Part shown: positions 6,497 through 21,909 of the stretch, in pieces
How the letters are laid out: each line of letters begins with the position of its first letter
How positions within the stretch are numbered: position 1 is the stretch's first letter
Source: a virus
Taxonomy: Duplodnaviria; Heunggongvirae; Uroviricota; Caudoviricetes
Length of the DNA stretch: 64,000 nt
IMG/VR virus record: IMGVR_UViG_3300028887_000066
Span: 243,550 to 307,549 of that record
Direction: 5' to 3' (one strand)
Made by a program: the position numbers and the translations under genes
Notes under the pieces: generated by a model
Told to the model about the DNA's origin: nothing
The model's input: only the letters and a program-made list of their open reading frames with translations
Database searches by the model: none

Positions 6497-6530
6497 AATG
6501 GGAGTGTTTTTTCCGCTCCCATTATTTTTT
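6497..6530 (+). terminator. Rho-independent (bidirectional) terminator after the amidase gene
   Basis: 8-bp stem aatgggag/ctcccatt, then a T-run attatttttt. Confidence 0.7.
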
Positions 6531-6857
6531 ATCTTCCGTCATATGTTCTATTTCTAACGATTCAAATGAATAGGCATTGACACCATCAAAAGCCTTTTTT
6601 AAATGCTGCATTATGATGGCCCATTTACTATCCGCACGTCCCCTTATCTCATCCTGTTTTCCAACTTTTTGCCAAATATTCATTGCAGCTTTTATATGGG
6701 CCATTGCTTTGTCACAATTGTTGTAAAGCTGATTAGGTTCTGCATTACGCATATGGTTCCCCTCATTAACTATTTTTTTAACAGACGCTTTTATTATCTC
6801 ATGTAATTCTGATTCCTTTATTTTCATTGTATTTTTCATTTTTATTTTAATCCCCAA
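6522..6857 (-). CDS. hypothetical protein carrying the shared N-terminal leader (KESELHEIIKASVKKIVNE)
   Basis: ORF; N-terminal motif shared with 15744-16358, 19880-20695 and 21265-21909. Confidence 0.55.
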   Translation of the reverse strand: MGIKIKMKNTMKIKESELHEIIKASVKKIVNEGNHMRNAEPNQLYNNCDKAMAHIKAAMNIWQKVGKQDEIRGRADSKWAIIMQHLKKAFDGVNAYSFESLEIEHMTEDKK

Positions 6858-6860
6858 ACA

Positions 6861-7145
6861 TTATTTTTCTGTACATATTTCCAAAATATCTTCAGCCATT
6901 GATTTCGCCAAATTTTTCGGTAATCTAAAATCGCTGAACTTATGTCCATACATACTGAAATATATACTTATATATTTCTCATCATTATCTAATGAATATT
7001 CTATGTTTTCATCACCATAGAAATCATTTTCCTTTAATATATTTGAACCATGCGTAAGGTTCTCTCCATCTTGGGTATGCAAGGTTTCTTTCGTTTTCAT
7101 ACGCTTCTCTCTCAAATGATATATTCCTGTAGGCTTTATGCCCAT
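6861..7145 (-). CDS. hypothetical protein (94 aa; start uncertain, overlaps 7024-7362)
   Basis: ORF. Confidence 0.35.
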   Translation of the reverse strand: MGIKPTGIYHLREKRMKTKETLHTQDGENLTHGSNILKENDFYGDENIEYSLDNDEKYISIYFSMYGHKFSDFRLPKNLAKSMAEDILEICTEK

Positions 7146-7362
7146 TTAAATATACAAAAAGTTTAATCAGCCATTCAATTCCATACCATATATAGAAAAA
7201 TATGTATAACATGTATTTCATCTGTTCCGTATGAATTGTTTCATGATTAATGTCATACTCATTCAATTCCCTTTTCGCATCGCTTCTTACAAACAGCACA
7301 CCAAAAAGGTTTATTGCCAAATAACCTTTAAATGGTATTATTTTGTTCTTAACTATTTTCAT
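7024..7362 (-). CDS. small membrane-associated protein with HExxH motif (NHETIH); putative metallopeptidase-like
   Basis: HETIH plus a hydrophobic segment; assignment speculative. Confidence 0.4.
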   Translation of the reverse strand: MKIVKNKIIPFKGYLAINLFGVLFVRSDAKRELNEYDINHETIHTEQMKYMLYIFFYIWYGIEWLIKLFVYLNGHKAYRNISFEREAYENERNLAYPRWREPYAWFKYIKGK

Positions 7363-7375
7363 CTTCTTTCTTGTC

Positions 7376-7386
7376 TTTATCTTTGT
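7376..7386 (+). promoter_or_regulatory. plus-strand -7 box TATCTTTG about 35 nt upstream of the 7420 start
   Basis: tatctttg at 7378-7385 matches the TAnnTTTG consensus. Confidence 0.45.
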
Positions 7387-7419
7387 AATAAATACTTAGG
7401 AAAAAGTATTTATAGACGT

Positions 7420-9174
7420 ATGAAAAAGATAACAATTACTGAATCACAATACAAAAAACTCAAGAAAAACATACTTGAGGGAATCGATTGGTCTAAAAAC
7501 CCAAACGGTACTATTAACATGTCAGTAAATCAGGACATGACAGATAAGGCTAATAGCGGCATGAATAGTGTAGATACCCGTGTATTCGGCAGTAAAAACA
7601 ATGTACTACATGGCGATAATACAGGACATTGGGCAACACATTCACTCTATCAGAACGCCACATCAAAACAGGCTGCAATACAATACTATACGAATGTAGT
7701 TAATTTTGTAAAAAATGGAAGGCAAGGCCAATTAGATGTGCCAGAAAACGTTGAGCCTAAGACTGTTACGGCTGTTAATAAATGGTTTTCAGAGGGTAGA
7801 TCAGACAGATGGATTATTGATGCTGCCACTAAGTCAATCGCCCGTATTCAACAAGAGGCTAACCCATATATAAGCACATTAAACAGAGTGACTTCTACAA
7901 ATTCGGATAAAGTGGCAAGATATACTACGGGTACGGTTACGGGGACTGACGTAAAATATATAGCCCTCTTTACGATGACTGACTTCAATTTTAGTGACGC
8001 TATAAAACACGGTAATGTAAGGCAAAACGGAAACATCGATTCTATCCTTGGTATTACGAAGAGTGAAAGGGAAAAAGGTGACAAGGGTACTGACTATGCC
8101 AATATAGATGTGACATACGATAATAAATATACCCCTGATATTGCCCAAAACTTCTCGCTTAAAAATGTACAGGATGGCCATTATAAACAGCAATACGGAT
8201 TAGGTGATGATAATGGTTATTCAAGTGTTTCCCAGTTCTTGGATAAATCGGTTAATTATGCCGCTTATGCCTTGAAGCAGGAAAACTACCATCCAGATTT
8301 CATTGTCGCACCGCCAAGCTCATCCAAATTCAACCAATACTATTGTACAAATCTCAGTAATAAGTTAGGCGTACCATTTAGACAGGATTTCTTTATAAGG
8401 AATTTGATCAATGTGAAATTCGATAATGGGAGAGACACGCAAGCGATGCTTGAAAAAGGCTTTTCACAGAAGGATATAATGGATTTTGAAAATCAGGTGA
8501 AAAATGTGGCTTACAAAGAGATAGCTTATTTCGTATCTGAACCTATCAGGGAATTAGTCTATTCAAACCAAGCCTTATTCTCAAATATATCATTGGCATT
8601 ACATAGCAGGGAAAAAACACCGATAAATGAGGTATTTGACTGTTTAATGATTTATGTATATAGAACAATAATAAATGCCATTCAGTCAGGCAATGATATA
8701 GTGGAAAAACATCTTGTCCATAATTTTATGGCAAAACAAAACAAGCTGTATCAGAAAAAATACGATTCAACACATATATTTACCCAAATAGTACAGCTTA
8801 TCAATTTGAAAATAGGCAAAAAAGTATTCAATGAGTATATGAAAAAGACATTACAATTAGTAAGACAATACTCAAATACATTGAAAGAGAATGGCTATGC
8901 ACTTCGTTTTGATACGAAAAGAGTCAAAGTAACACAATTCCAAAAGCAATTCCGACCATTCTTGCACAATGTATACATCATTGCTGACAATTACATGAAC
9001 AATGGTGAGCTTATGAAGCAATACAGGAATGCAAAGTTCCTTATATTTGACGAGGATATTAACAGCGGGGCCACCCTCAAACTCTGTATTGATGCCTTAG
9101 AGGAAAAAATACCAGATGCCAACGAAAAGAATATAATGTGTCTTGTAAACGCCTATTCCGCTAAAGGATGGTAA
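7420..9174 (+). CDS. large hypothetical protein (584 aa); C-terminal region has a phosphoribosyltransferase-type motif (FLIFDEDINSGATLK) and a ComF-like D-F-I-V-A-P-P-S-S-S segment
   Basis: Start refined to ATG 7420 (MKKITITESQYKKLKKNILEG). FLIFDEDINSGATL fits the type I PRTase PRPP-binding loop hhhhDDxxxTGxT. Confidence 0.65.
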   Translation: MKKITITESQYKKLKKNILEGIDWSKNPNGTINMSVNQDMTDKANSGMNSVDTRVFGSKNNVLHGDNTGHWATHSLYQNATSKQAAIQYYTNVVNFVKNGRQGQLDVPENVEPKTVTAVNKWFSEGRSDRWIIDAATKSIARIQQEANPYISTLNRVTSTNSDKVARYTTGTVTGTDVKYIALFTMTDFNFSDAIKHGNVRQNGNIDSILGITKSEREKGDKGTDYANIDVTYDNKYTPDIAQNFSLKNVQDGHYKQQYGLGDDNGYSSVSQFLDKSVNYAAYALKQENYHPDFIVAPPSSSKFNQYYCTNLSNKLGVPFRQDFFIRNLINVKFDNGRDTQAMLEKGFSQKDIMDFENQVKNVAYKEIAYFVSEPIRELVYSNQALFSNISLALHSREKTPINEVFDCLMIYVYRTIINAIQSGNDIVEKHLVHNFMAKQNKLYQKKYDSTHIFTQIVQLINLKIGKKVFNEYMKKTLQLVRQYSNTLKENGYALRFDTKRVKVTQFQKQFRPFLHNVYIIADNYMNNGELMKQYRNAKFLIFDEDINSGATLKLCIDALEEKIPDANEKNIMCLVNAYSAKGW

Positions 9175-9443
9175 AAATCATACAGTTTCTTGAAGAAAGA
9201 TGTATTACCATATATTTCAGACATTAAATCATCCTGAAAATAGGAGTAGTCGTCAATACATTCGTTTCCGAACATGTCAGTATCATAACGGTATGATTTG
9301 ACAAAATCGGAAACGATTTTTTTCGCCTCTTTACGAAAGAGCTTCAAATCTTTTCCTTCTATAGTAAATTCATCAGTAGCCTTCTCTTCGATTCCCTCAA
9401 GGCACTCTTTGATCAATTCCCTTTTATTCAATTTTTTTCCCAT
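9153..9443 (-). CDS. hypothetical protein (start refined to internal Met)
   Basis: The promoter-like caaagata box at 9459-9466 lies inside the longer ORF, so Met at 9443 is preferred. Confidence 0.45.
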   Translation of the reverse strand: MGKKLNKRELIKECLEGIEEKATDEFTIEGKDLKLFRKEAKKIVSDFVKSYRYDTDMFGNECIDDYSYFQDDLMSEIYGNTSFFKKLYDFYHPLAE

Positions 9444-9490
9444 TTGTCTCTTGTTTTGACATCGCAAAGATAGGATTTTATTTTCACATG

Positions 9491-9522
9491 AACAAAAAAA
9501 CATTCACTTTTTCAAGTGAATG
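9491..9522 (-). terminator. Rho-independent terminator closing the leftward tRNA transcription unit
   Basis: 9-bp perfect hairpin cattcactt/aagtgaatg followed (minus sense) by TTTTTTTG. Confidence 0.7.
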
Positions 9523-9534
9523 CTATGATATTAG

Positions 9535-9616
9535 ACTCCGTAGTTGGATTTGAACCAACGTGTGCAACGCAAATGGTTTTGCAGACCATCCCTATCGACC
9601 CCTCAGGCATACGGAG
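9535..9616 (-). tRNA. tRNA, type II-like (13-nt variable arm), apparent anticodon GCA (Cys)
   Basis: Manual fold: acceptor CTCCGTA/TACGGAG, anticodon stem ATGGT/ACCAT with loop CTGCAAA, variable arm TTGCGTTGCACAC, T-arm GTTGG-TTCAAAT-CCAAC. Confidence 0.55.
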
Positions 9617-10035
9617 GTAAAAATTCTAAAACATTACGTTTCATTCGGCGAAACCGTATAACGCTTGTTTTTAATGAACAAGTGATGAAACTTATCCGAC
9701 GTATCGGAAAGGACAAACCATTTGTACGTTTTCCATCAGCCGTAACGCTTTAGGAGGATTTCCTGGTAATCTTGCTCGGTTTCATTAAGCATCCTCGGGC
9801 CCAACTACATTCCCTATTCCACCTTTACCGTCTACACCGTGGTCAAATGGAAAAAACCACGATATGCTTCTCTCTTAACGTCTTTTCTAGGATAGACCTG
9901 AGTTTTTCGAACCGCTCCTCCTGCATCTGTCCTGATATGTTTGACAGCACCCATATAAAACTTCGGAGGAGGCAAACTATATAAATATACGCACTCCCTA
10001 GAACACCTACACTGATGTTGTGTAGCCCTATCGTG

Positions 10036-10107
10036 CGGCCTATGCAGGGATCGAACCCGCGACGTTTCCTTTTAGGGAGGACTGCTCTGCCACTGAGCTA
10101 ATAGACC
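10036..10107 (-). tRNA. candidate amber suppressor tRNA (anticodon CUA)
   Basis: Manual fold: acceptor GGTCTAT/ATAGGCC, D-arm GCTC-AGTGGCA-GAGC, anticodon stem GTCCT/AGGAA with loop CCCTAAA (positions 34-36 = CTA, A37), T-arm GCGGG-TTCGATC-CCTGC. C33 instead of U33 is atypical. Confidence 0.5.
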
Positions 10108-10147
10108 TTTCAATTAGGGAGCATTGTATCTCCCCGATTGTTTTTGC

Positions 10148-10185
10148 ATTGCAAAGATAAGGCATTTTATTGGAATGGCCAAATT
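10148..10185 (-). promoter_or_regulatory. Bacteroidetes-type promoter (TTTGGCCAT..20 nt..TATCTTTG) reading leftward into the suppressor tRNA
   Basis: caaagata (10151-10158) and tggccaaa (10176-10183) on plus = -7 and -33 on the minus strand. Confidence 0.65.
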
Positions 10186-10204
10186 TCTTTGCAAAAATGT
10201 TCAT

Positions 10205-10531
10205 TCAAAGAATTTCGACTACTTTTCCGTAGATGTTATTCCGACTTATTACCCCATTGGCGTGACCGTGATTGTTGCCGATCAAATACCTGTCACCAGG
10301 TTTTACCGACCATATCAAATGAAGATAATAGTGTCCGTTCACCTTACATAGTACAATATCGCGTTTCTTTAATTCAGTAGCATCATTCACGGGAATACAA
10401 ATTACAGGCTGCTTTGATTTCAGAATAGGCAACATACTATTACCTATACCAGTGATTTTAGCTACTTTCCCCTGTCTTAATGCTTCAGCGGAATACTTAT
10501 TCTCAAACCCTTCATATTCAACATTCCACAT
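10205..10531 (-). CDS. S24-family (LexA/UmuD-like) serine peptidase domain protein, no DNA-binding domain
   Basis: GNSMLP (Ser nucleophile motif) and a downstream Lys (LCKVNG); 108 aa standalone catalytic domain. Confidence 0.6.
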   Translation of the reverse strand: MWNVEYEGFENKYSAEALRQGKVAKITGIGNSMLPILKSKQPVICIPVNDATELKKRDIVLCKVNGHYYLHLIWSVKPGDRYLIGNNHGHANGVISRNNIYGKVVEIL

Positions 10532-11192
10532 AATCTAAGGTTTTAATCAAGTGCCACAATGACATTATACTTTCAACGTAGTTTTTCTTTTGTGTTTCCA
10601 TACTGTATGTATCACCCGTACCACCGTGTGTAGAGCCAAAATTGAATTTTATCTCCTCAGGCTTTCCGTAATCTGGATTTTTCGGATTTTCATTCTCATT
10701 ATGCAAGAATTCACGATACTCATTCTTAGTGCAGGTTTTATAGGCGTAACAATACTCATTATGACTTAAAAGATACAGTGTGTGTTCCGACACTTGCTTG
10801 TAGATGTCTTTTTTGTCCCTGTTTTTTCTGTCATAACAGTAGATGGATATAGGCATATCGTTATTTTCTTCATAACTTTGATATGTTCCGAAACGACCAT
10901 TACGCTCTTTTAGCACTTTCTGAAATGTGTCCCTTTTTCTTACAACAAAGTCGTCATCACTATAATTTAGAACATTCTTAAATGGCTCTAATTCTGAATA
11001 AAAAGTATTTGAGTACCCTCTGTTCTTCAGCATTTTTTCGCACTTATTAACCTGTTCTGTGATGTACTTCAATGCTTCATCCTCACTGAGGTTGTGCTTT
11101 ATACAGTAATAAACTACATGTGTGTGGTGATATACGTCCCACTTTCTCTCGGTCATCCAATTTTTCAGGAAAATATAACTATTGTTTTTCAT
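10518..11192 (-). CDS. hypothetical protein (224 aa)
   Basis: ORF. Confidence 0.6.
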   Translation of the reverse strand: MKNNSYIFLKNWMTERKWDVYHHTHVVYYCIKHNLSEDEALKYITEQVNKCEKMLKNRGYSNTFYSELEPFKNVLNYSDDDFVVRKRDTFQKVLKERNGRFGTYQSYEENNDMPISIYCYDRKNRDKKDIYKQVSEHTLYLLSHNEYCYAYKTCTKNEYREFLHNENENPKNPDYGKPEEIKFNFGSTHGGTGDTYSMETQKKNYVESIMSLWHLIKTLDYVEC

Positions 11193-11421
11193 AATTTTAA
11201 TCGTATTTGTAAAAAGTAATTATTGTTTTTAATGTGTGATCAATTTTTAACTGAAAAATCAATCGAAAAAAGCAAAATCCCATTTCAAAATACGATTATC
11301 GGATAACCACGGATTTTAGTAACCTACCATTTCTGTCTTTTCATAAATTCAGACGTTTTTTAATTAATGATTATTTTCTTTAGAATTAACATTACAAATA
11401 TACAAATCGTTTTGCATATTG

Positions 11422-11493
11422 TAGGCCGCGCAGGGGTCGAACCTGCCATCTTCTGATCCAGAGTCAGACGTGTTACCACTACACCAGCAGCCT
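11422..11493 (-). tRNA. tRNA-Gln (anticodon CUG)
   Basis: Manual fold: acceptor AGGCTGC/GCGGCCT, D-stem GTGT/ACAC, anticodon stem TCTGA/TCAGA, loop CTCTGGA, T-arm GCAGG-TTCGACC-CCTGC. Confidence 0.8.
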
Positions 11494-11503
11494 GTTTATT
11501 GAG

Positions 11504-11577
11504 TAGGGACGAAGAGGGTCAAACTCTTACCTTTTGGTTCAAAGCCAAATGTGCAGAAGTCGCTACACCACATCCCT
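11504..11577 (-). tRNA. tRNA-Gln (anticodon UUG), atypical D-loop
   Basis: Acceptor AGGGATG/CGTCCCT, anticodon stem TTTGG/CCAAA with loop CTTTGAA, T-arm AAGAG-TTTGACC-CTCTT; the D-loop lacks GG. Confidence 0.5.
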
Positions 11578-11719
11578 ATAAAATACTACGGATAAAATAT
11601 ATGACTTACCTCGGCGGGCCGCATACTCGACCACTTCACCACCTACCAGATCTGTCCTCGTTTAGTATGATAAGAGAGTATGGCAACTTATAATCAAATA
11701 TATTGATCAGTAGTATTAG

Positions 11720-11792
11720 TACGCCTAACAGGATTCGAACCCGTATAAAACACTTTAGAAGAGTGTTGCCTAATCCATTCGGCCACAGGCGC
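11720..11792 (-). tRNA. tRNA-Arg (anticodon UCU)
   Basis: Anticodon stem ACACT/AGTGT, loop CTTCTAA, T-arm ACGGG-TTCGAAT-CCTGT, acceptor GCGCCTG/TAGGCGT. Confidence 0.75.
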
Positions 11793-11798
11793 GTTTTG

Positions 11799-11870
11799 TA
11801 CCCCGACCCAGAATCGAACTGGAAACTAAATCTTAGGAGGATTTTGTTATATCCATTTAACTATCAGGGC
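11799..11870 (-). tRNA. tRNA-Arg (anticodon CCU)
   Basis: D-stem GTTA/TAAC, anticodon stem AAATC/GATTT, loop CTCCTAA, T-arm TCCAG-TTCGATT-CTGGG. Confidence 0.7.
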
Positions 11871-11885
11871 TTTAACATTGTTTAG

Positions 11886-11972
11886 TAGCGCGTATGGGAT
11901 TCGAACCCATGAGGGCGTTTTATGCCCACTACATTGAAAGTGTAGCGACCTAGACCACTAGTCCAACGCGCC
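11886..11972 (-). tRNA. tRNA with Glu anticodon UUC but an 18-nt stem-loop variable arm (type II architecture)
   Basis: Acceptor GGCGCGT/ACGCGCT, anticodon stem CTACA/TGTAG with loop CTTTCAA, variable arm TGGGCATAAAACGCCCTC (GGGC/GCCC stem), T-arm ATGGG-TTCGAAT-CCCAT. Confidence 0.55.
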
Positions 11973-11980
11973 ATATATTG

Positions 11981-12054
11981 TAGCGGTAGCGAGGCTCAAA
12001 CTCGCAATCTCCACATTGAGAGTGTGGTGACTTAATCAGTTCGTCTATACCGCC
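11981..12054 (-). tRNA. tRNA-Glu (anticodon CUC)
   Basis: Acceptor GGCGGTA/TACCGCT, anticodon stem CCACA/TGTGG with loop CTCTCAA, T-arm GCGAG-TTTGAGC-CTCGC. Confidence 0.65.
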
Positions 12055-12203
12055 ATAAATGATACCTGAACAGTTGCAACTTCTTTTCCTATGCAGACAC
12101 TTTACTATGGACTGTTGTTGTCTCTTACGTAACGCTCTACAGTCTAAACGGTCATTCTCCGCAGGCAATATGCAAGAATCAGATATTCAAGTATCGTATT
12201 TCG

Positions 12204-12240
12204 CTGCAAATATAAGATTAATTTTTCAATTGGCCAAATA
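12204..12240 (-). promoter_or_regulatory. Bacteroidetes-type promoter (TTTGGCCAA..20 nt..TATATTTG) heading the leftward tRNA operon
   Basis: caaatata 12207-12214 and ttggccaaa 12230-12238; the tRNA array and its terminator (9491-9522) lie downstream. Confidence 0.65.
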
Positions 12241-12618
12241 TTTCATCGTAAATCTTCGCCTCAAATTTATAGCGGTTCCGCTGTCTTTCCATTTATTGCA
12301 ACGTACAAACGCTATGTCAAAATCTGAAAAATCCGTCATTGCAGAATCACGTTCCTCGTCTGTTTTGAAACCACCAACTTTATTCTTGATAGCGTAATTA
12401 TAATTCATTGGCTGTTCATTCATATGGAATACTGTTGTTTTCTCTTCCATACCACATTCTACAAGATAATTCTGTGCCATTATATCAACCCCGTGATAGT
12501 CGCCGACAACAAATATTGCCTCTTTGTCATTGTCAATTACTTTATTGATCATCGGCTTGTAGAATTCATTAAATTCTTTAACAGTTACATCCCTATGTCC
12601 ACTTATGAAATATTTCAT
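12226..12618 (-). CDS. SLOG/DprA-like Rossmann protein (DUF2493/YspA-like)
   Basis: MKYFISGHRDVT .. IFVVGDYHGVD matches the xxSGsRdxt .. vvsGGArGvD pattern. Confidence 0.5.
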   Translation of the reverse strand: MKYFISGHRDVTVKEFNEFYKPMINKVIDNDKEAIFVVGDYHGVDIMAQNYLVECGMEEKTTVFHMNEQPMNYNYAIKNKVGGFKTDEERDSAMTDFSDFDIAFVRCNKWKDSGTAINLRRRFTMKYLAN

Positions 12619-12913
12619 CCTAAAATCATTTTTCGCAAATATACAAAAACCGAGAGCAAATCCATTTTTATGAATCTGTTCTCGGTCTAAATTTCTGTCA
12701 GGACGTTCTTATATTAAACACTGTACTTACAATCTACGTATTAAATAAAAGATCAAGAGACGACAGGCGACCGAGAAATTGTTCTCTCTGCTGCCTACAT
12801 TCTTGCTCTTGTTCTCTTCTATTTTTCAAAACGTAAATCATAACACGTATGTTCTATTTCTTTTTATAAATATACTACTTTTCCAAAAAATAACAATAAA
12901 AAATGAAAAAAAA

Positions 12914-13316: not shown

Positions 13317-14936
13317 TTATTTTACATATAAATATCTTTTAATTTCCCCTTTTAACGTCTTGGAAAATGGTTTGCCATAAATAATAAAAGACGAAATTTG
13401 CTCATTTACTGGCAATTTACCATTTATTTTTTTCCTTTCATCATCAATAAGACGGCTCATTTCAGATAAATCTTCAAGGGTCTTGAATCTTTTAGCGGAA
13501 GGATAAACAATAGCTTTAAGCCTATTCTCATTTTTGTCAAGATATACAATGGACTCGCTTATAATGCCACTACTGTTAATGATCTCCTCTATTTCTTTGG
13601 GGTTGATGTTTTTCCCGTCATTTTTAATTATGAGATCACTTCTTCCCTCAAGAAATAGATTACCATCCTCGTCAAAATAGCCTACATCGCCTGTTCTCAT
13701 CCATCCATTGTCAAACACCTCATCCGTAGCTTGTTCATTTCCGTAATATCCGAGCATTACATTATCGCCCATCACATATATTTGGTTTCCATCCCTTACC
13801 TCTATCTGCATCCTGGGAGCCGTTTTCCCACAAGAACGAAATATATGTTCGTTTTGATCACTATATGTGATGATAGGTGAGCATTCAGTCATCCCGTATC
13901 CGACTGTAAACGGTATGTGATAGTCAATTAAAGCTCTTTCCACTTCTGCATCCAATTCAGCACCACCTATTATAATTTCATAGAAATTGCCCCCTAAAGC
14001 CGTCTTTATGACACGGCCTATGAGTTTATCCGCCAATGGTTTAAAAAGCCTGTAGAATGGCTTAAAATAAGTTTTATGGATATATTTGAATATATTATCC
14101 CTAATAAGCGTTTCGATTAATAACGGGACGACAATTACTATGCATGGTTTGGTTTTTTTGAATGTGGACAGCATATTTTTTACCGTTAAAGGTTGAGTCA
14201 TGAAATGTACATTTACCCCAAATACAATAGCCCCAAGAAAATCATACATTATACCATACATATGGGCCAACGGTAATAATGAAACTACATTATCTCCAGT
14301 TTTTAACATATGTACCACTTCTAATGCAAACGCTAAATTTGATGATAATGCCCGTGACGGTATCATTACGCCTTTTGGAGAGGACATTGTACCGCTTGTA
14401 TAGTTTATTGAAATTAGCTCGTCAGGTGAATAGTGGTGTATTTTATCACAGAATTCTTCAGCGGTACACCCCTCAAGCTTCATACTACCTATTACATATG
14501 GGAGTTTATTTTCACCTGAAAATAGGAGGCTGAAATCATCCAATGAGTAAACGGCTGACAGTTTTCCGAAACACTCAAGACTATTCTGCATTTCATCCCA
14601 AATCGCTTCTGATATGAATAGGACTTTTGAATCCGAATGCTCTATAAGATGGGTAATCTTATCTGTCGTAAATTCATGCAGAATAGGCACGGCAACAGTT
14701 CCATATGTAGTAGTAGCGAGATATGTTATCCCCCAATTTATTGAGTTCATTCCACAAATAGCCACTTTATCACCCTTTTTAATGTTCAGGCAATCAAACG
14801 CAAACCATAATTGCCGTATACCATAAGCTACATCAGAATAATTAAAAGAACGAATGGGATAATCCGTCATAGATGGAATATCCCAAAACTTTTTGAATGA
14901 TTCTGCTATGTATTGTGAATAGGTAAGGTTATTCAT
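13317..14936 (-). CDS. AMP-dependent synthetase/ligase (long-chain acyl-CoA synthetase-like)
   Basis: AMP-binding motif YTSGTMSSPKGV, GYGMTE, and hinge TGDVGYFDEDGNLFLEGRSDLIIKNDG. Confidence 0.85.
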   Translation of the reverse strand: MNNLTYSQYIAESFKKFWDIPSMTDYPIRSFNYSDVAYGIRQLWFAFDCLNIKKGDKVAICGMNSINWGITYLATTTYGTVAVPILHEFTTDKITHLIEHSDSKVLFISEAIWDEMQNSLECFGKLSAVYSLDDFSLLFSGENKLPYVIGSMKLEGCTAEEFCDKIHHYSPDELISINYTSGTMSSPKGVMIPSRALSSNLAFALEVVHMLKTGDNVVSLLPLAHMYGIMYDFLGAIVFGVNVHFMTQPLTVKNMLSTFKKTKPCIVIVVPLLIETLIRDNIFKYIHKTYFKPFYRLFKPLADKLIGRVIKTALGGNFYEIIIGGAELDAEVERALIDYHIPFTVGYGMTECSPIITYSDQNEHIFRSCGKTAPRMQIEVRDGNQIYVMGDNVMLGYYGNEQATDEVFDNGWMRTGDVGYFDEDGNLFLEGRSDLIIKNDGKNINPKEIEEIINSSGIISESIVYLDKNENRLKAIVYPSAKRFKTLEDLSEMSRLIDDERKKINGKLPVNEQISSFIIYGKPFSKTLKGEIKRYLYVK

Positions 14937-14942: not shown

Positions 14943-15158
14943 TTATCCAATTCGGTCAAGCATATCATTATAATTGAACCATATGGCAAAAACCACCGCC
15001 ACTATCATTACTACGTCATTTACCCCAGGGATAAACATTACGACAGTAGACAGCTTTGCAAAGCTTTCCATTTCGTGTCGTTTCAAATATGGTAACAAAC
15101 CCCTCAATACGACAAATGGGGCTAAATATAATAGACTACAAATTAAAAAGATACCCAT
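14943..15158 (-). CDS. small membrane protein; possibly the frameshifted C-terminal tail of the upstream FNT gene
   Basis: 71-aa hydrophobic ORF overlapping the end of the FNT ORF by 16 nt in another frame. Confidence 0.3.
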   Translation of the reverse strand: MGIFLICSLLYLAPFVVLRGLLPYLKRHEMESFAKLSTVVMFIPGVNDVVMIVAVVFAIWFNYNDMLDRIG

Positions 15159-15742
15159 TTCAAACCAAGTTTGTTAATCATTAAGCTTCCAATCGCGTTA
15201 CCAAATACCCACATAATTAGCTGCGGGCAGAAAAAATCACCGTTCATAGCCATATATCCATAGTTTGCTATACAGTGATCAAAGCCGCATAATATAAAAC
15301 ACATTACGGGAAGGATAATGGTTATTGGATGCTGTTTCCATTTATACCCGTCTACGGCAATATACATCATTGCGCCGCACCCAATAGACCTTATTAGTGC
15401 TTGATACCATAATTCGGAATATTTAGCGGCTAATATACTACTTGTTGTTAATGTAATTCCTGAGAAATTGGCGAATACCCAGCAAATAACCCCAATACCA
15501 ATAAAATTAAGTAAAAGCATTGGTAATAATTGGAATAATGGGTATGTCCAATTCATTTTCATGTATCCGACTTTCCCCGTATACAAGTTAGCACCCTGTA
15601 TTACGACGGTAAGAAGACCTAAACTAAACAAGAATGAGCCTAATATATGGCTTTCAACGGCAACAAATGCTATGCACCCGAATCCTATAAGCACTCCAGC
15701 CAATAGGGACTTCAATATGAATTCTAAAATCTTCTTTGGCAT
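15143..15742 (-). CDS. formate/nitrite transporter (FNT) family channel (short, 199 aa)
   Basis: Multi-TM protein with the FNT signature FILCGFDHCIANYGYMA (compare GFEHSIANM). Confidence 0.65.
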   Translation of the reverse strand: MPKKILEFILKSLLAGVLIGFGCIAFVAVESHILGSFLFSLGLLTVVIQGANLYTGKVGYMKMNWTYPLFQLLPMLLLNFIGIGVICWVFANFSGITLTTSSILAAKYSELWYQALIRSIGCGAMMYIAVDGYKWKQHPITIILPVMCFILCGFDHCIANYGYMAMNGDFFCPQLIMWVFGNAIGSLMINKLGLKWVSF

Positions 15743-15743
15743 T

Positions 15744-16358
15744 TTACTTAACTTTTACTCTTGCCCTGAAATCTTCTATACAAGCATCGATATTATAATG
15801 TACGTCATTGTAATTTCCGACACCATATTTCCTCGCATACTTATTATCTTCTTCCTCATTGTTTCCAAGGGCTTCCTTACGCTGTCTGTCAAATGTGTTT
15901 CCCTTTGTCGGGATATAGCCTCTGAATTTGCTTCCATCCCAATAGACCATGAAAATTACGGGTATTTCCCAATCACCGCCCGCACTAACAATAACGTATG
16001 GCATACCATTATAATCTCTCAAATCGCCAATGTAATCCACATTTTCTGGATCCCATTTTACTTTGGAAATATCATTGAACAAGTCTTTAAGGCTATTCTT
16101 ATGCTCTTTCTTCCAACACTGATTTCTAATGATATTTACAATATCCTTCCATTTAATCTTGCCATTTGCCTCATATTCAACCTCAATGGCGACTTTCTCA
16201 ACATGTTCAGTAAATTCAGTCGGGGTTATTTTAACCCCTGTCCTTCCGCTGCTTGGGAGTTCTACATCCATGTTAACATATTTGTTTTTATTTTCTTTCA
16301 GAACACGCTTAATGGACTCTCTCACTAAGCCTCTCAATTCAGATTCCCTTATCTTCAT
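15744..16358 (-). CDS. hypothetical protein with the shared N-terminal leader (MKIRESELRGLVRESIKRVLKE)
   Basis: ORF; leader motif. Confidence 0.6.
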   Translation of the reverse strand: MKIRESELRGLVRESIKRVLKENKNKYVNMDVELPSSGRTGVKITPTEFTEHVEKVAIEVEYEANGKIKWKDIVNIIRNQCWKKEHKNSLKDLFNDISKVKWDPENVDYIGDLRDYNGMPYVIVSAGGDWEIPVIFMVYWDGSKFRGYIPTKGNTFDRQRKEALGNNEEEDNKYARKYGVGNYNDVHYNIDACIEDFRARVKVK

Positions 16359-17116
16359 TACTCAGACATTTCTTTTTTGCTTTTCTTATACTTCTCCCTT
16401 GGTTTTGGACAAAGTTTTACCAATTTACTGTGCCACTCATTCCAAACGGGCTTGTATTTAACCTTAAAATCATCCCATTTAAAGCCATTTTCAAGGTCTG
16501 TAAAAATATCAGTATATAATGGACGTGCAACATAAAAATCTGTAATAAGCCCGTTTTCGGCAATTTGGCAGGCATACATAAGAAGCCTTATTGAATGAAA
16601 TAGGCTCTTCGCACCACATCTCATGTCCAAATCCTTCTTCACTGTCATTTTTTTCTTCGCTTTTGCAAATGAATTGTTTGACACGCTTCCAAACGACTCA
16701 CGTAGCAACCATTTATTTAACTTGAAGTATTGCCTGTAATCAGCTATTGTCTTTTTATTGTCATCCGTATTATACAACACCTCGTTAGTAAGAAGAATGG
16801 CCTCCAATGCAAAAGGCGTATGCTCATTTATCATATCGATGAAATCACTTTCTCTCACTACTTGCACGTCCGTCTTTGGTACATCCATCATTTCAATGGT
16901 AAATTGATGCAATCGAATATCACATTTTTCATTATCAAATACGCCATCCTGATCAATAAAGTCGGTATCATCAGCTACAACGATAGCCATATCACGATCC
17001 GATTCCTTTGTCATTGTGCCATAAACGGCGGAACCGCGTGAAAACATCGTAAGTCTTTCATTATCTACAAATAACTTTGCTACGCAATCCGCTACATCAT
17101 TACAATTTACTGTCAT
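16358..17116 (-). CDS. nucleotidyltransferase-fold (Pol-beta superfamily) protein
   Basis: GSAVYGTMTKESDRDMAIVV = G-S-x3-G-x5-S-D-x-D; exact subfamily (MNT, OAS/CD-NTase-like) undetermined. Confidence 0.45.
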   Translation of the reverse strand: MTVNCNDVADCVAKLFVDNERLTMFSRGSAVYGTMTKESDRDMAIVVADDTDFIDQDGVFDNEKCDIRLHQFTIEMMDVPKTDVQVVRESDFIDMINEHTPFALEAILLTNEVLYNTDDNKKTIADYRQYFKLNKWLLRESFGSVSNNSFAKAKKKMTVKKDLDMRCGAKSLFHSIRLLMYACQIAENGLITDFYVARPLYTDIFTDLENGFKWDDFKVKYKPVWNEWHSKLVKLCPKPREKYKKSKKEMSE

Positions 17117-17133
17117 ATTTATCGTTTTCTTTT

Positions 17134-17634
17134 CTACTTTTCTTCACCATTATTCAATGTACTGTACAAATCATTGTATGCCTCTGTCATTTTTTCTTTA
17201 AATGTCTTCAGGAAGGTGTCTTTATCTATTTCTTCCGCACTATCCATTATTTCCTTAATAGTTTCCTCCCCTCGATAAAACACCTTGATTTGTTCATAGT
17301 TATCATAGAAGAAATATGTTTCGTCGGCATAATCAGCGACGTTGCCATTAACGGCTATGCAAGTGATTATAATATCATATTCATCTTCACCTAAAGACCC
17401 TTTCCAAGGTCTTTTGCTAACCCAAGGATCTGGAAAATTTTCAGGTACATATATGTACTTCCCTTCCAAATCCAATGGTGTATTGTCATAGCCGAACTTA
17501 AAATATCTTCCTTTTAGAAATTTAATCAGGCCACCCATCTGAAGATTTTTAATCTTATTCCTAAGTTCGGAAACCTCATCCAACTTTTTACTTATTTCCT
17601 CTTTAAGTGTTCTGATTTCTTCTTCTGTATTCAT
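17134..17634 (-). CDS. hypothetical protein with N-terminal coiled coil (166 aa)
   Basis: ORF. Confidence 0.55.
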   Translation of the reverse strand: MNTEEEIRTLKEEISKKLDEVSELRNKIKNLQMGGLIKFLKGRYFKFGYDNTPLDLEGKYIYVPENFPDPWVSKRPWKGSLGEDEYDIIITCIAVNGNVADYADETYFFYDNYEQIKVFYRGEETIKEIMDSAEEIDKDTFLKTFKEKMTEAYNDLYSTLNNGEEK

Positions 17635-17637
17635 AAA

Positions 17638-17868
17638 CTAAAGATTTTCAATTATTTTTAACGGACACCATTTCGGTCTTTCATAGATGAATTTTTTCTT
17701 TTTCTTGTTATAAACCATAGGGGTTTCCCTTCCCTTAAAATAGCAAATCCTTATAGGCTTATCTTCCGTACCATCACTTGCGTCCTCTTTACGCTTTACA
17801 AAGGAAAACCTGCATTTGGTACATGTAACAGGCAGCTCCTTGAAATTTGTCTCGTATATGATTTTCAT
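17638..17868 (-). CDS. small Cys-containing (zinc-ribbon-like) protein
   Basis: CTKC .. WCP; 76 aa. Confidence 0.4.
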   Translation of the reverse strand: MKIIYETNFKELPVTCTKCRFSFVKRKEDASDGTEDKPIRICYFKGRETPMVYNKKKKKFIYERPKWCPLKIIENL

Positions 17869-17881
17869 TAATTACAGGAAG

Positions 17882-18355
17882 TTATTTATTTCTTTCCCTG
17901 TAATTAAATACTTGTTTTTTGATTCCTTCACGCCTCATTATGGAACATAATATCGTAAGATCTCCGAAATTATTACATTCTCTATATTCGGATTTTTTGA
18001 TCAATGAAATTTCATCCGTCTCTTCATCCCATTCCAATAACCCCCAGTTATCACCCAATTCGTCAGGTTTTATTATTCCTTTCGGGGCTAAATAATATCT
18101 ATAGTTTCCGACAGAGTATTTTTTAAACTGTTCATTACGGCTTTTTTTCTTGCTGTCTTTCTTGAAATCCGCCCTTGACGTTTTAACCTCAATAATGGTT
18201 GATTGCCATCCAGAAGTACCGTATACATCAGTACATTCCATTCCCTGCGTTATAATTTCGACGGCAACGTATTTTATAGACCAATAGTACATGCTCTGCA
18301 TGAACTCAGCCCCTTTTTTACAAAGCCTGTAATGTAATGAATTAGTTTTTGACAT
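17882..18355 (-). CDS. PD-(D/E)XK nuclease-fold protein (MmcB/DUF1052-like)
   Basis: YVAVEIITQGMECTDVYG .. STIIEVKTS gives the D .. E-V-K catalytic arrangement. Confidence 0.5.
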   Translation of the reverse strand: MSKTNSLHYRLCKKGAEFMQSMYYWSIKYVAVEIITQGMECTDVYGTSGWQSTIIEVKTSRADFKKDSKKKSRNEQFKKYSVGNYRYYLAPKGIIKPDELGDNWGLLEWDEETDEISLIKKSEYRECNNFGDLTILCSIMRREGIKKQVFNYRERNK

Positions 18356-18440
18356 TAAAATCTTGTTATCTTAGACAAATATACAATAAAAATGGAAGGC
18401 TCTTGAGAGTCTTCCATATAAAAACACCGTATTAGTGGAT

Positions 18441-18842
18441 TCAACGATTTTTTAAAACCTCGACCTTTATTAAAATAACTCCGAGCCTGTGTGCCGCAAT
18501 TTTTCCAAAGGCCCCGTATGTAAGGTCAAGCCTGTTAGGGTGCTTATTGGCAAAGCCTCCCCTGTCTGTGACTTTTACGATTACCGACTTACCGTTTTGT
18601 ATGTTAGTAACCTTTAGTCTCGTGCCAAATGGGAAATCCTTATGTGCTGCGCAAGTCATAGCATTCATATTGAATACGTCTCCATTTGCAGTATACCTAC
18701 GTCCCTTGTAAGTATTTCCGTAGTACGTGGCATCCCATTTTCCCTCTTTGACAATAATAGAATTGCTCCCCTTGTCGTTTGCCTGTGAATTAACGCTAAC
18801 TGTACCAAGCATAAACAAGAGCAAAATTAAAATTTGCTTCAT
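18441..18842 (-). CDS. secreted RlpA-like double-psi beta-barrel (lytic transglycosylase-type) protein
   Basis: Signal peptide; ATYYG..RYTANGDVF..MTCAAHKDFPFGTRLKVTNIQNGKSVIVKVTDRG matches the RlpA DPBB domain. Confidence 0.75.
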   Translation of the reverse strand: MKQILILLLFMLGTVSVNSQANDKGSNSIIVKEGKWDATYYGNTYKGRRYTANGDVFNMNAMTCAAHKDFPFGTRLKVTNIQNGKSVIVKVTDRGGFANKHPNRLDLTYGAFGKIAAHRLGVILIKVEVLKNR

Positions 18843-18987
18843 AAAACGTAAAATTTTTGGAGCTGTTATCTGCCCCCATAGTTATTATTATGCACGGCTA
18901 TCCACATGCCGTGTTTCCTTGTGGTTCAGAACAAACCAAAAACGGTACGTTTATAAATATACAAAATTTTAACTTTTTTTGATCATA

Positions 18988-19245
18988 TTAAGGTTTTTCT
19001 TTGAGTTTTTTAACTAATAAATCCTTGATATTCCCATATGTACGACATCTGACAATTTCAATATTTTTTATTTTAATACCAAGTTTATTTTCACACTCCA
19101 AAGCCGTTTCCATTACTTTTAAGGAATCCAACCCAAGATCATTAAGTAATGAAATATCATCGTTAATTTCTATTTTATTTTCTTTGATCTCCGATTTAAA
19201 TATAGTTTTCAATAAATCGTCAACCTTTTCCTCAAATTCATTCAT
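18988..19245 (-). CDS. acyl carrier protein
   Basis: DLGLDSLKVMETALECENKLGI contains the phosphopantetheine-attachment DLGxDSL motif; start set to Met19 to avoid overlap. Confidence 0.8.
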   Translation of the reverse strand: MNEFEEKVDDLLKTIFKSEIKENKIEINDDISLLNDLGLDSLKVMETALECENKLGIKIKNIEIVRCRTYGNIKDLLVKKLKEKP

Positions 19246-19258
19246 TGGATATAAAAAA

Positions 19259-19801
19259 TTATTCTGCTGTGCTAACTTCATATACTTTGTTTTTACCACC
19301 CTTTTCGGGCTTCATACAAGGAATAAACGCCATTTTCAATGCGTCATAATTCTTGATGTATGTAAAATTGTCAATATATATTGCATCAAACTTGTTTCCG
19401 ATAAAATTTTCAGGTCTTGTCATTACACTTACCTTTATAATATGCCCCTTGTACTGAAGCGTCATGTTCTTTTGGTTCATCCTGATTATTTTAATTGGCT
19501 CAGGATATTCATCTAAAACGCCTTTCAAAGCATCCATCACGGCTTTTGCGGCAGGCAATGAATGGTTCACATGGGCAATATTAAATTCATCTTTTTCATT
19601 GTTTATAATATCGTAAGCCATTTTAGCCACTAATGCCGTTGTCATTCCCGTCTGTCTACTTGAATCGAATGACATTGGGGCATTCTCCCATGCAAGCAAT
19701 AAGCATCGTTGAAGGTCTGACGGGTAGAATTTGCTTTTCTTTCGTGTCTTTTTATCAATAATAGTTACATACTTTTCAATAAATTCCAATATATTCATCA
19801 T
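19259..19801 (-). CDS. hypothetical protein with degenerate P-loop-like motif (SRQTGMTTAL)
   Basis: ORF. Confidence 0.5.
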   Translation of the reverse strand: MMNILEFIEKYVTIIDKKTRKKSKFYPSDLQRCLLLAWENAPMSFDSSRQTGMTTALVAKMAYDIINNEKDEFNIAHVNHSLPAAKAVMDALKGVLDEYPEPIKIIRMNQKNMTLQYKGHIIKVSVMTRPENFIGNKFDAIYIDNFTYIKNYDALKMAFIPCMKPEKGGKNKVYEVSTAE

Positions 19802-19879
19802 TAAACATTTTTATAAAAATACAAATAAAAAACGGCAAGGAAACAAAAAGTTATCCTTGCCGACATTTGAATTTTAGCG

Positions 19880-20695
19880 TTATCTATTAAAAGCAGTTAT
19901 CAATTGTTTCAGTAACCATTGCCCTCTTTGGTTCTGTCCTATTTCTTGTCTTAACTGGGCTATTATTGTCTCTATTTTATCATCATCAGGATTATCATAA
20001 TCACCCAAAACTGTCCTCGCAATTGCAGGTATTTTATGCTCTTGGTTATACGCCCATTTCAAATTACTTAATTTACTGAATGGTATCCAAGCAGCCACGT
20101 CTATCTCACCTACCTCACAATTCGCCGTAGATGTCGGATATTGGTCTGTTGTACCATTGACTATGGCTGTAAAACATACGTTAATATCCTTATTGTTGGA
20201 ATTGGTAGAGTATTGGTTTATCCTATTTATATCAATTTTAACGCCTGTTTCCTCATACACCTCACGTGCAATGCCCATTTCAAGTGTCTCATATTGTTTC
20301 ATACCGTTTTTCCCTATGGTATGAGCCATATCAAGGTATCCACCAGGAACGGCAAACAAACCGTTTCCTCCGTGTGCCTTCGGCCCTCTTTTAACCGCCA
20401 ACACGCACCATTCATCATTCTTATTTTTACAGAATGCATAAATGGACATACTCGTATTACGACTTACATAGAAAACCTGACCACCACGCCTTACGGCAAA
20501 ATTATTTTTAGTCTTTGCCCATTCATCACCAAATTTTGTATTAGGATCGTATTCCAATGACACTATATTATTAGGATCTCTTGGGTCATATGGCAATCTG
20601 TTTCTATGCGCTTCCTGTAATCCTTTCTTAATGGATTCTTTTATATGCTGTCTTAATTCTGTTTCCGTTAGTCTCATACAAGTAAATACCTTCAA
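19880..20695 (-). CDS. NUDIX hydrolase with ~100-aa N-terminal extension carrying the shared leader
   Basis: Nudix box GIAREVYEETGVKI (GX5EX7REUXEEXGU); N-terminus MRLTETELRQHIKESIKKGLQE. Confidence 0.8.
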   Translation of the reverse strand: MKVFTCMRLTETELRQHIKESIKKGLQEAHRNRLPYDPRDPNNIVSLEYDPNTKFGDEWAKTKNNFAVRRGGQVFYVSRNTSMSIYAFCKNKNDEWCVLAVKRGPKAHGGNGLFAVPGGYLDMAHTIGKNGMKQYETLEMGIAREVYEETGVKIDINRINQYSTNSNNKDINVCFTAIVNGTTDQYPTSTANCEVGEIDVAAWIPFSKLSNLKWAYNQEHKIPAIARTVLGDYDNPDDDKIETIIAQLRQEIGQNQRGQWLLKQLITAFNR

Positions 20696-20777
20696 AGTGC
20701 AAAAAATGCACTATAAAACGGCAATTAACCATTTATAGTGCATCAAACACAAACAATATCATGAACAACAAAAAACA

Positions 20778-21164
20778 CTATCGTGCCATTTTTACTAAGA
20801 TATTTCTCTTGACCTTTGACGGAATGTTTGCCTCATCATCAAGAATACGTTTCACAATGCTGTATGCTTCACCATACATTTCAGCGGTGGCATCTTCAAT
20901 TTTTTGCCCAGCACGAGGATCAGTACCGTTACGATACCCATACATATACAAATACCCGTCCATAAGATTAAGCTTCAAACTGTGAAGCCAAGGTGACTCG
21001 TTGTTACCATTATCATTCTTCCAACGATGGTAGTTTGCAAAATTAATACTCCGAAGACCTCGCATTTTCATCAAATCCTTCAATGATGCGCGAAGCTCAA
21101 TTTTCCGATAATCCAAAGATTTCTTCTTTCCGAACATGTTCTTAAAATTTTCTAAAAAACTCAT
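20778..21164 (-). CDS. hypothetical protein (128 aa)
   Basis: ORF. Confidence 0.55.
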   Translation of the reverse strand: MSFLENFKNMFGKKKSLDYRKIELRASLKDLMKMRGLRSINFANYHRWKNDNGNNESPWLHSLKLNLMDGYLYMYGYRNGTDPRAGQKIEDATAEMYGEAYSIVKRILDDEANIPSKVKRNILVKMAR

Positions 21165-21264
21165 ATGATTTATATTTGAAACTATATTGTCTCTCTCACC
21201 CTAAATATACAACATTTTTTCCTATTTAAAGCTATTTATTATAATAAAAAACACTTTTTCAAAA

Positions 21265-21909
21265 ATGAAATTGACAGAAAAACTATTAAGAGAATCTATA
21301 AAGAGAGTTATCAAGGAATACCTTGACTATTCGCCTGCCGACCTTGGTCTTAGTTGGGATGATGAAGAAGACCCGATGGCACAATCAGACGCAGAATATG
21401 ATGAATTCATGGATAAATATATGAAGGATAACCCAAACGAGTTTGAAAAAGAATTTGGTAGTCTTGAAAAACCATCTGAGACAAACAATGAAACTATCGA
21501 TACAAATGATATGCCATTTGAATCCAAGGAATTAAACGAGGCACAACTCAGAGCTATGGTAAGAGAGCAAGTGGAGAAGTTAATTAAGGAAAACTATCCA
21601 TTAGGCGCACAATATGACCCACGCGCACCTTGGAATCAGGCTCCTGATGTTACAAATAAGGTGACAGTCGATGGTACTGCATATTACGGCAATGATGAGA
21701 CGGAAGAAGATAAGGCAATACCATTCAGTGTCGAAGTAGAAGCATACGGAGAATATGAGGATGATTGGGATGAAGACGGACGCTCATCATATTTTGTCCC
21801 ATCTGATGATAATGACTATATAAGTCTCGTCAGACAAAGTGGTCAAGTACCTGATACAATAGATGGTGGTTTTACATTAGTGGATATTGATATTGATTCT
21901 GTAAATTGA
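21265..21909 (+). CDS. acidic hypothetical protein with the shared N-terminal leader (MKLTEKLLRESIKRVIKEYL)
   Basis: Plus-strand ORF, Asp/Glu-rich. Confidence 0.6.
   Translation: MKLTEKLLRESIKRVIKEYLDYSPADLGLSWDDEEDPMAQSDAEYDEFMDKYMKDNPNEFEKEFGSLEKPSETNNETIDTNDMPFESKELNEAQLRAMVREQVEKLIKENYPLGAQYDPRAPWNQAPDVTNKVTVDGTAYYGNDETEEDKAIPFSVEVEAYGEYEDDWDEDGRSSYFVPSDDNDYISLVRQSGQVPDTIDGGFTLVDIDIDSVN

Follow-up and report, generated by a model that had tools for sequence, protein, structure and literature searches.

The IMG/VR virus record IMGVR_UViG_3300028887_000066 (Caudoviricetes) contains a stretch of 64,000 nucleotides (positions 243,550 to 307,549 of the record; hereafter the window, whose numbering is used throughout unless a locus is named) in which several otherwise unrelated proteins carry the same short, mostly N-terminal peptide, here termed the leader. 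The remainder of each protein is termed the cargo, and loci of relatives are denoted by L numbers. The 64-kb window has a G+C content of about 36%, is coded almost wholly on the minus strand and contains huge-phage auxiliary genes, among them those for Hsp70, a UvrD helicase, an ABC ATPase and an IMPDH-like enzyme. A sequence-only reading had claimed that at least six proteins of the window share the leader, that the leader ends in a cleavage site of T4-type prohead proteases, and that it is a candidate capsid-targeting propeptide. All six peptides that it listed were recovered at their positions in the window sequence. The proteins concerned are as follows.

6522 to 6827, minus strand: leader protein of 101 amino acids; leader MKIKESELHEIIKASVKKIVNE at 6762-6827, cargo of 79 amino acids.
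15744 to 16358, minus strand: leader protein of 204 amino acids; leader MKIRESELRGLVRESIKRVLKE at 16293-16358, cargo a globular domain widespread in huge phages.
19880 to 20677, minus strand: Nudix hydrolase leader protein of 265 amino acids (PF00293, E=3e-9); leader MRLTETELRQHIKESIKKGLQE at 20612-20677.
21265 to 21909, plus strand: acidic two-leader protein of 214 amino acids; truncated N-terminal copy MKLTEKLLRESIKRVIKE at 21265-21318, full internal copy LNEAQLRAMVREQVEKLIKE at 21532-21591.
7420 to 9174, plus strand: candidate short-form member of 584 amino acids; N-terminus MKKITITESQYKKLKKNILEG at 7420-7479, C-terminus weakly phosphoribosyltransferase-like.
1 to 669, minus strand: ART-like protein, cut by the window edge and 346 amino acids long in full; N-terminus MGMKRITRKELKEMVKGRVLEA, full gene at L133 11038-12078.

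Starts at the leader methionine are given by public gene calls (same genome, Ga0310696_10000012 and others) for the proteins of 204, 265 (Nudix), 214 and 584 amino acids. Identical proteins put the window on Ga0310696_10000012, a contig of 355,767 bp from a sheep-rumen metagenome, and on an ENA scaffold of 353,808 bp. A hidden Markov model (HMM) of the leader was trained on 136 leaders from outside the window only, to avoid circularity, and was run on the six-frame translation of the window. The null consisted of 50 residue-shuffled six-frame windows, whose maximum scores had a median of 5.2 bits and a highest value of 10.9 bits. Three copies are far above chance, namely those at 6522-6827 on the minus strand (30.1 bits), 15744-16358 on the minus strand (21.7 bits) and in the Nudix protein, 19880-20677 on the minus strand (21.1 bits). 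The internal second copy in 21265-21909 (amino acids 90-109), absent from the list of the sequence-only reading, scored 11.9 bits and is marginally above chance, and the truncated N-terminal copy of the same protein scored 7.2 bits and is counted on context only. The window copies terminate in VLKE, IVNE, GLQE, VIKE and LIKE, and in a DNA alignment their column identity is only 58%. The window total comes to four solid leader proteins with five copies, one further candidate (7420-9174) and one unsupported protein (ART-like). The claim of at least six members therefore held for the four proteins at 6522, 15744, 19880 (Nudix) and 21265 by HMM; it failed for the ART-like protein and probably for the 584-amino-acid protein, on motif score and on the absence of the site depletion described below.

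Outside the window, the leader forms a family of 20-27 residues with the consensus M-(N)-K-K-[LI]-I-R-L-T-E-S-[DE]-L-H-R-I-V-K-E-S-V-x-[RK]-I-L-x-E. Its core, T-E-[ST]-[DE]-L-x3-[IV]-K-E-[SA]-[IV], searched as a degenerate DNA pattern of about 37 bits, was matched in at least 119 IMG/VR stretches, compared with about one estimated chance match. Matches to a 46-bit window-type pattern were present on 35 metagenome contigs, and those to a 49-bit pattern on 30 contigs of a genome collection. After de-duplication there were about 150 distinct IMG/VR leader copies, each followed by unrelated sequence. The start methionine lies at most 10 residues upstream, usually 5-8, in 140 of these copies, which were kept as the N-terminal set; all 35 metagenome matches (35/35) are leaders with a start methionine a few residues upstream wherever upstream sequence is present. 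The cargos are diverse: 126 of them fall into 93 BLAST clusters with a median cargo length of 105 amino acids, and the only Pfam domains recognised are two Nudix, one GNAT and one zinc-ribbon. Leader-only-like frames (33-53 amino acids), or leaders placed a few residues before a stop codon, were seen in L022, L030, L057 (7388-8896) and L086 (1730-2665); these may be decayed genes or leader-only peptides.

Codon usage at the leader is free. All synonymous codons are used at conserved residues, with Ser4 encoded by TCA (49), AGT (44), TCT (15) and AGC (11), and residues not forced by the search pattern are conserved all the same (L1 in 134/140, H7 in 117/140, L/I18 in 135/140, E20 in 132/140). 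Free synonymous codons, both serine families included, together with the unforced conserved positions show that selection acts on the peptide and not on the DNA. Orthologues keep the leader while the cargo diverges, and distant homologues of the 15744 protein are leaderless; the leader is therefore an add-on module.

The matches in the genome collection are nearly all rumen contigs of metagenome-assembled genomes binned as Prevotella, Prevotellaceae or Bacteroidales, and the leader-bearing phages are best explained as a clade of uncultivated phages of about 350-410 kb of rumen and gut Bacteroidales. Two isolate chromosomes carry a lone canonical leader gene. In Segatella bryantii DSM 11371 (NZ_BPTR01000001.1; L150, about 6930-7200) the phage-type upstream DNA is kept and a GH2 glycosidase gene adjoins, and in Prevotella sp. 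MA2016 (L155 5795-6823) an IS1595 transposase gene adjoins. These genes offer a clue to the host and may have been captured; on the wider interpretation given last, they could be phage genes taken up by the host, or even host decoys that are packaged into the progeny of invading phages.

The T4 prohead protease gp21 cleaves after L/I-X-E, and processing is blocked when Asp replaces Glu (PMC9026906). IPI-III and Alt lose short N-terminal peptides to it, gp23 loses 65 residues, and gp22 is shredded (PMC9958956). The leader end conforms to this site, with Glu as the last residue in 132/140 and L/I two residues earlier in 135/140, as the sequence-only reading had proposed; an L-T-E is also present near the leader start. 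Counts of [LI]-x-E were compared with within-sequence shuffles. In 122 cargos the motif was observed 74 times against 112 expected, a ratio of 0.66 (bootstrap 0.53-0.82, z -4.2), whereas the ratio was 1.29 both in 656 control open reading frames (ORFs) of the same loci (z +16.6) and in size-matched controls (z +9.2). The scaffold is enriched, with a ratio of 1.83 (z +7.0) and 2.19 sites per 100 amino acids versus 0.50 in cargo. Related patterns are not depleted in cargo: ratios were 1.11 for [LI]-x-D, 1.32 for [LI]-x-K, 1.37 for [LI]-x-Q, 1.07 for V-x-E, 1.08 for A-x-E, 1.23 for E-x-[LI], 0.98 for [LI]-E and 0.94 for [LI]-x-x-E. The four strong window cargos (609 amino acids) contain no [LI]-x-E against 4.5 expected; the cargos of the 6522-6827, 15744 and Nudix proteins (the last of 243 amino acids) have zero sites each, and in the 21265-21909 protein 5/5 sites fall within its two leader copies. 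Within the 15744 family the ratio is 0.56 with the leader and 0.95 in the leaderless distant homologues. This pattern of depletion is what would be expected if leader proteins meet an L/I-x-E-specific protease and are selected to survive it.

A gene for such a protease, the search for which the sequence-only reading had proposed as a check, was found as Peptidase_S77 (gp21-family) in the leader-bearing relatives L119, L200 and L185. The gene order in L119 is a T4-type gp20-like portal (PF07230, 1e-66), a 311-amino-acid protein, two successive leader genes, a 145-amino-acid protein, a divergent-leader gene, the Peptidase_S77 prohead protease (PF03420, 1.2e-24; phrog_207), a 534-amino-acid acidic scaffold-like protein and a Gp23-family major capsid protein (PF07068, 2e-72). 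L200 has the same order from TerL to capsid, with two leader genes, and so does the more divergent L185 (protease 50% identical), with five leader genes in the module. The order in the T4-like phage PP01 is gp20, gp67, gp68, gp21, gp22, gp23. Since the leader genes lie between portal and protease, where PP01 has the core genes gp67 and gp68, they occupy the slot of the small prohead-core genes. Compared with gene 21 of T4-like phages and cyanomyoviruses, the protease of the clade shows 30-39% identity. At its N-terminus the capsid protein has a 60-amino-acid domain that is homologous to the propeptide of gp23 (alignment of NRWDQLGFTEGLP to NKWKPLLEGEGLP) and has four [LI]-x-E sites, the last of which, HLIYE/ATAS, is conserved across 119 capsid proteins. 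As a side observation, the S77 proteases themselves (L119 3943-4635, minus strand; L200 7586-8284, minus strand; L025) begin in a leader-like manner with MKKELEIIKE/G or MNKSELQVIKE/G, and their [LI]-x-E near residue 10 matches the place of LIE-9 in T4 gp21, where autocleavage reportedly occurs.

Co-occurrence and co-localisation of leader and head module were also counted over all loci. In the 119 IMG/VR loci picked by the leader pattern alone (mean 8.5 kb), a head-module gene is present in 34 and one of ten virion genes in 55. The head-module baseline of about 5% is an estimate for a random 8.5-kb locus in a 380-kb genome and is rough, as loci of related phages are non-independent. A promoter-like motif, [GAT]ATATTTAT[AT], is located 15-35 nt upstream of start codons and precedes about half of the leader genes (related loci L009-L127). 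[GAT]ATATTTAT also precedes the sheath, tube, TerL, portal, scaffold and capsid genes, often directly after a hairpin and a T-run. In the window, TATTTAT stands before 2/5 leader genes (21265, about 33 nt upstream, and 7420) and before 2/93 other ORFs of at least 100 amino acids. The promoter-like motif is also seen in the window upstream of 13306.

The leader is interpreted as a capsid-targeting propeptide of T4-type heads that is cut off by the prohead protease, and targeting plus cleavage is given a probability of about 0.7. The S77 protease, portal and capsid genes of relatives, the position of leader genes within the head module and the depletion of [LI]-x-E in cargo argue for this part of the sequence-only reading; its inclusion of an ART-like cargo found no support. 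Leader genes would be transcribed together with the virion genes. The amphipathic N-terminal helix of 20-27 residues would dock the protein that bears it onto the scaffolding core as the prohead forms. Activation of the gp21-family (Peptidase_S77) prohead protease would follow, with a cut after the leader-terminal [LI]-x-E and probably a second one after the L-T-E near the leader start. The scaffold would be shredded, and the cargo, being purged of [LI]-x-E, would survive in the head. By analogy with the internal proteins of T4 and with Alt, it may accompany the DNA on ejection and arrive in the next cell as an early effector, already made; this injection step is held with less confidence than targeting and cleavage. 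The window cargos in such a scheme would be one Nudix hydrolase and three orphan proteins.

The sequence statistics, the gene neighbourhoods and the protease genes of relatives are observed, and docking, cleavage, retention in the virion and injection are inferred from them. Several observations weigh against this interpretation. The T4-type head module and S77 protease of the window's own genome are likewise inferred from relatives, with which the window phage shares 15 genes at 31-60% amino-acid identity as well as conserved leader-cargo pairs. All 120 matches listed among capsid-protein homologues are at least 80% identical to the canonical clade and none is from the window genome; its contig was likewise absent from IMG/VR in a search with a window protein and from the metagenome pattern matches. 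No virion genes were found in the 10 kb beyond one window edge. In the window, leader genes are dispersed between genes of metabolic and auxiliary function and do not stand with virion genes. The 15744 gene is translationally coupled to an upstream 252-amino-acid ORF, with whose stop codon it has an ATGA overlap at 16358, and appears to be co-transcribed with non-structural genes. In stop-to-stop reading frames, a minority of leader copies occupy an internal position or the extreme C-terminus. Most cargos are acidic (median isoelectric point 5.6), in contrast to the internal proteins of T4, which are basic. Conservation of the leader greatly exceeds that of the 10-amino-acid T4 sequence, which hints at an additional, tighter or different constraint. 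No phage head genes are present in the 8-kb loci around the two leader genes of isolate chromosomes. The similarity between leader and scaffold N-terminus is weak (hhalign P=0.0014, HMM rank unremarkable), and an origin of the leader as a copy of the N-terminus of the scaffold or of the capsid propeptide, being weakly supported, was not used.

The gp67/gp68 slot of the leader genes would also suit expendable parts of the prohead core or of assembly, like T4 gp67, gp68 and gp22, which are targeted to the prohead and then degraded or expelled instead of delivered. Cargos are mostly small orphans, often acidic or of low complexity, as such parts might be. This explanation is nevertheless unlikely: the protease motif is depleted in cargo and enriched in the scaffold, which is a signature of selection to survive the protease, it is hard to see what role enzymes such as the Nudix and GNAT cargos would have as scaffold, and a diversity of 93 families is atypical of structural parts. 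It is quite unlikely that the leader is an uncleaved late tag by which proteins are docked or localised elsewhere than in the capsid interior, be it at the tail or baseplate, at a membrane, in a phage-built compartment or, as a client tag, with the Hsp70/GrpE system. Such a tag would leave unexplained why the terminal [LI]-x-E is nearly invariant, why the depletion in cargo is specific to this motif and spares its Asp and Val/Ala variants, and why leader genes are enriched beside portal, protease and scaffold genes in particular. It would agree with the amphipathic helix of the AlphaFold2 model, the Hsp70 and GrpE genes of the window phage, the absence of recognised virion genes beside about half of the leader loci, and the proximity of some leader genes to baseplate-like genes (L001).

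A low-complexity coincidence, which the sequence-only reading had named as a possible refutation, or a nucleotide-level element (recombination cassette, translation enhancer or 5' RNA structure) might be thought of because the sequences are rich in lysine and glutamate and A-rich, and because in many genes the upstream non-coding DNA is conserved too. The window copies at 21-30 bits exceed the shuffled-window maximum of 10.9, hundreds of pattern matches stand against about one or fewer expected, and synonymous codons are free, including both serine families, while the DNA of the window copies is only 58% identical by column. With the codon census and the null model refuting both forms, this explanation is extremely improbable. 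A Sec, Tat or lipoprotein signal peptide was ruled out, as the leader LTESDLHRIVKESVNRILKE is a charged amphipathic helix (helix 5-22 predicted) without a hydrophobic stretch.

The 6522-6827 protein has no Pfam or PHROG match and no known domain. The AlphaFold2 model of the 15744 protein (53 homologues, pLDDT (predicted local distance difference test) 93) has the leader as a separate helix at residues 5-22, followed by a 16-residue coil and a compact domain, for which a PDB fold search gave no significant match. In close orthologues of this protein the leader is short (MKRIIINESQ..EG), and in distant homologues of the domain it is missing. Genes around that of the 15744 protein include those for an AMP-binding, acyl-CoA-synthetase-like enzyme, for a formate/nitrite-transporter-family membrane protein and for an acyl carrier protein (13317-14936, 15143-15742 and 18988-19299).

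The Nudix orthologue in L009 bears the canonical leader MKKLVRLTEGDLRKIIKESVRRVLME. A perfect hairpin, GTGCATTTTTTGCAC, is found about 25 nt upstream of the start of the Nudix leader gene (window about 20700-20715) and may be the terminator of the preceding gene or a regulatory element. The segments after the leader are alike (YDPR[AD]P) in the Nudix protein (LPYDPRDPNN, 20612-20560) and after the internal copy of the 21265 protein (AQYDPRAPWN, 21592-21640), which suggests that the leader was duplicated along with a short adjoining segment.

Membership of the 584-amino-acid 7420 protein is doubtful. MKKITITESQYKKLKKNILEG is the best window match of a short-form HMM, yet it lies inside the null (7.1 bits versus 7.3 for the 95% null), and [LI]-x-E is not depleted in the cargo (5 observed versus 3.0 expected). 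In favour are its N-terminal position and the leader-like N-termini of orthologues in L047 (MRINLKEEQFKRLAIIKE) and L058 (VYINESKILSLEG); the L185 counterpart, with the N-terminus MTKKITITENKLKSLI, adjoins the TerL and portal genes. The ART-like protein is not supported as a member. Its N-terminus MGMKRITRKELKEMVKGRVLEA (MKRITRKELKEMVKGRVLEA) gave no score with the leader HMM or the short-form HMM, and its cargo shows no [LI]-x-E depletion. The missing site depletion of both proteins agrees with their failure in the motif test. With the ART-PolyVal profile the window protein is sub-threshold (22.4 versus 31.2) and an L054 homologue passes (32.9); in relatives the ART domain is part of proteins of 700-1000 amino acids without this leader.

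Other features of the window and its genome were noted. Eight tRNA genes are clustered at 9534-12054, and one with a CTA anticodon (10035-10107; tRNA-Pyl according to ARAGORN) suggests a potential amber suppressor and TAG recoding in part of the genome. Hsp70 (PF00012, 1.5e-202) is encoded at 45754-47628 and a GrpE-like protein (PF01025, public gene table) at 24334-24822; the two could form the phage's own chaperone pair. A reverse-transcriptase gene (RVT_1) at L133 15260-16348, in the same genome about 5 kb beyond the left window edge, is possibly part of a diversity-generating retroelement. Also present are a GmrSD_N-like domain protein (PF03235, 5.7e-12) and a second Nudix-like paralogue, which lacks the leader (window 60178-61080 and 63107-63736).

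In T4, a capsid-targeting sequence (CTS) is reportedly carried by IPI, IPII, IPIII and Alt and removed by gp21 (work from 1996 attributed to Mullaney and Black). This CTS is sufficient to load foreign proteins and is removed by gp21 (PMC9958956, PMC9026906), and T-even relatives carry further proteins with CTS-like leaders (PMC9026906). The leader resembles the CTS as an N-terminal tag with an L/I-x-E end on unrelated, non-essential proteins, in its association with a head module of gp20/gp21/gp22/gp23 type (here read in leader-bearing relatives), and in cargos that comprise host-modifying enzymes and small orphans and vary between related phages. It differs in its length of 20-27 amino acids versus about 10 and in being nearly invariant while other phage genes diverged, in serving at least 93 cargo families versus a handful, in its mostly acidic cargos and in being known from sequence alone; its phages infect Bacteroidales and have genomes that exceed twice the length of that of T4. 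The leader has no sequence similarity to the T4 CTS MKTYQEFIAE, and a tblastn search of the consensus leader against 50,697 GenBank phage records gave two chance-level matches (E=9), neither of them to an internal-protein gene. As there is no peptide homology to the CTS, the relation is one of functional analogy within a homologous head system.

Giant phages of the phiKZ type (phiKZ, 201phi2-1, SPN3US) are likewise huge and have many internal head proteins cut after Glu by a gp21-related protease, and the SPN3US paralogues gp53 and gp54 have an identical 15-amino-acid N-terminus (PMC5694885, PMC10052503). Their propeptides are mostly of 100-160 amino acids, with no common leader and the motif S/A/G-x-E (PMC5694885), whereas the leader described here has 20-27 amino acids and L/I at -2, A-x-E is undepleted in its cargo (1.08), and the head is of T4 type (Gp23, S77, acidic scaffold). 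The DarB protein of phage P1 has an N-terminal signal of about 30 amino acids that is sufficient for loading into a myovirus head and for delivery as an anti-restriction factor; it is a single protein without shared sequence, and no multi-cargo leader family is reported (PMC9024508). MuF toxins and ART-PolyVal polyvalent proteins similarly combine a conserved trafficking part with variable effector parts delivered with the DNA, but are large multidomain proteins, where here many small genes each have their own short leader. Cargo-loading peptides of encapsulins, which are cellular nanocompartments with an HK97-fold shell, are usually C-terminal and uncleaved. They too are short shared peptides that send diverse cargo into an HK97-fold shell, which there is not a virion; the present leader is N-terminal (140 of about 150 copies) and unrelated in sequence.

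When 20 kb of the window were compared with GenBank phages by megablast, no relative was found, and Lak megaphages have only a distant, 28%-identical homologue of one cargo. The jumbo Jug phages of Bacteroides have a G+C content of 27-30%, compared with about 36% in the window, and the accessible part of their description mentions a prohead protease and no leader (PMC12880540). Text searches for the leader peptide and related concepts found no published description. The leader family is apparently previously undescribed, and the statement of the sequence-only reading that none such is known from Bacteroidota phages agrees with these text and GenBank-phage searches. The leader sequence and its scale appear to be new, and the T4 capsid-targeting principle was already known.

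A wider interpretation, held tentatively and at less than even odds, is that uncultivated huge phages of Prevotella and other Bacteroidales form a widespread clade in which the leader works as a universal "virion secretion signal", with several to dozens of leader genes per genome and hundreds of unrelated families over the clade, all preloaded into the head and injected with the DNA. If so, a 20-residue motif would suffice to read an arsenal of first-strike anti-defence and host-takeover effectors from sequence alone. If the capsid-targeting interpretation is true, one short motif would flag the capsid-carried, infection-delivered proteins of uncultivated huge gut and rumen phages, a class normally defined by virion proteomics of cultured phage. 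At least 90 orphan families could be listed as candidate effectors of anti-defence or host takeover, and a natural packaging tag would become available for engineering Bacteroidales phages to deliver proteins. In other phages, head proteins that meet the protease may be recognised by the same reusable signature, read from sequence only, of a cargo depleted in the protease motif. Capsid targeting of the T4 kind, known from a few proteins of enterobacterial phages, would thereby be extended to a much larger scale in a distant host phylum.

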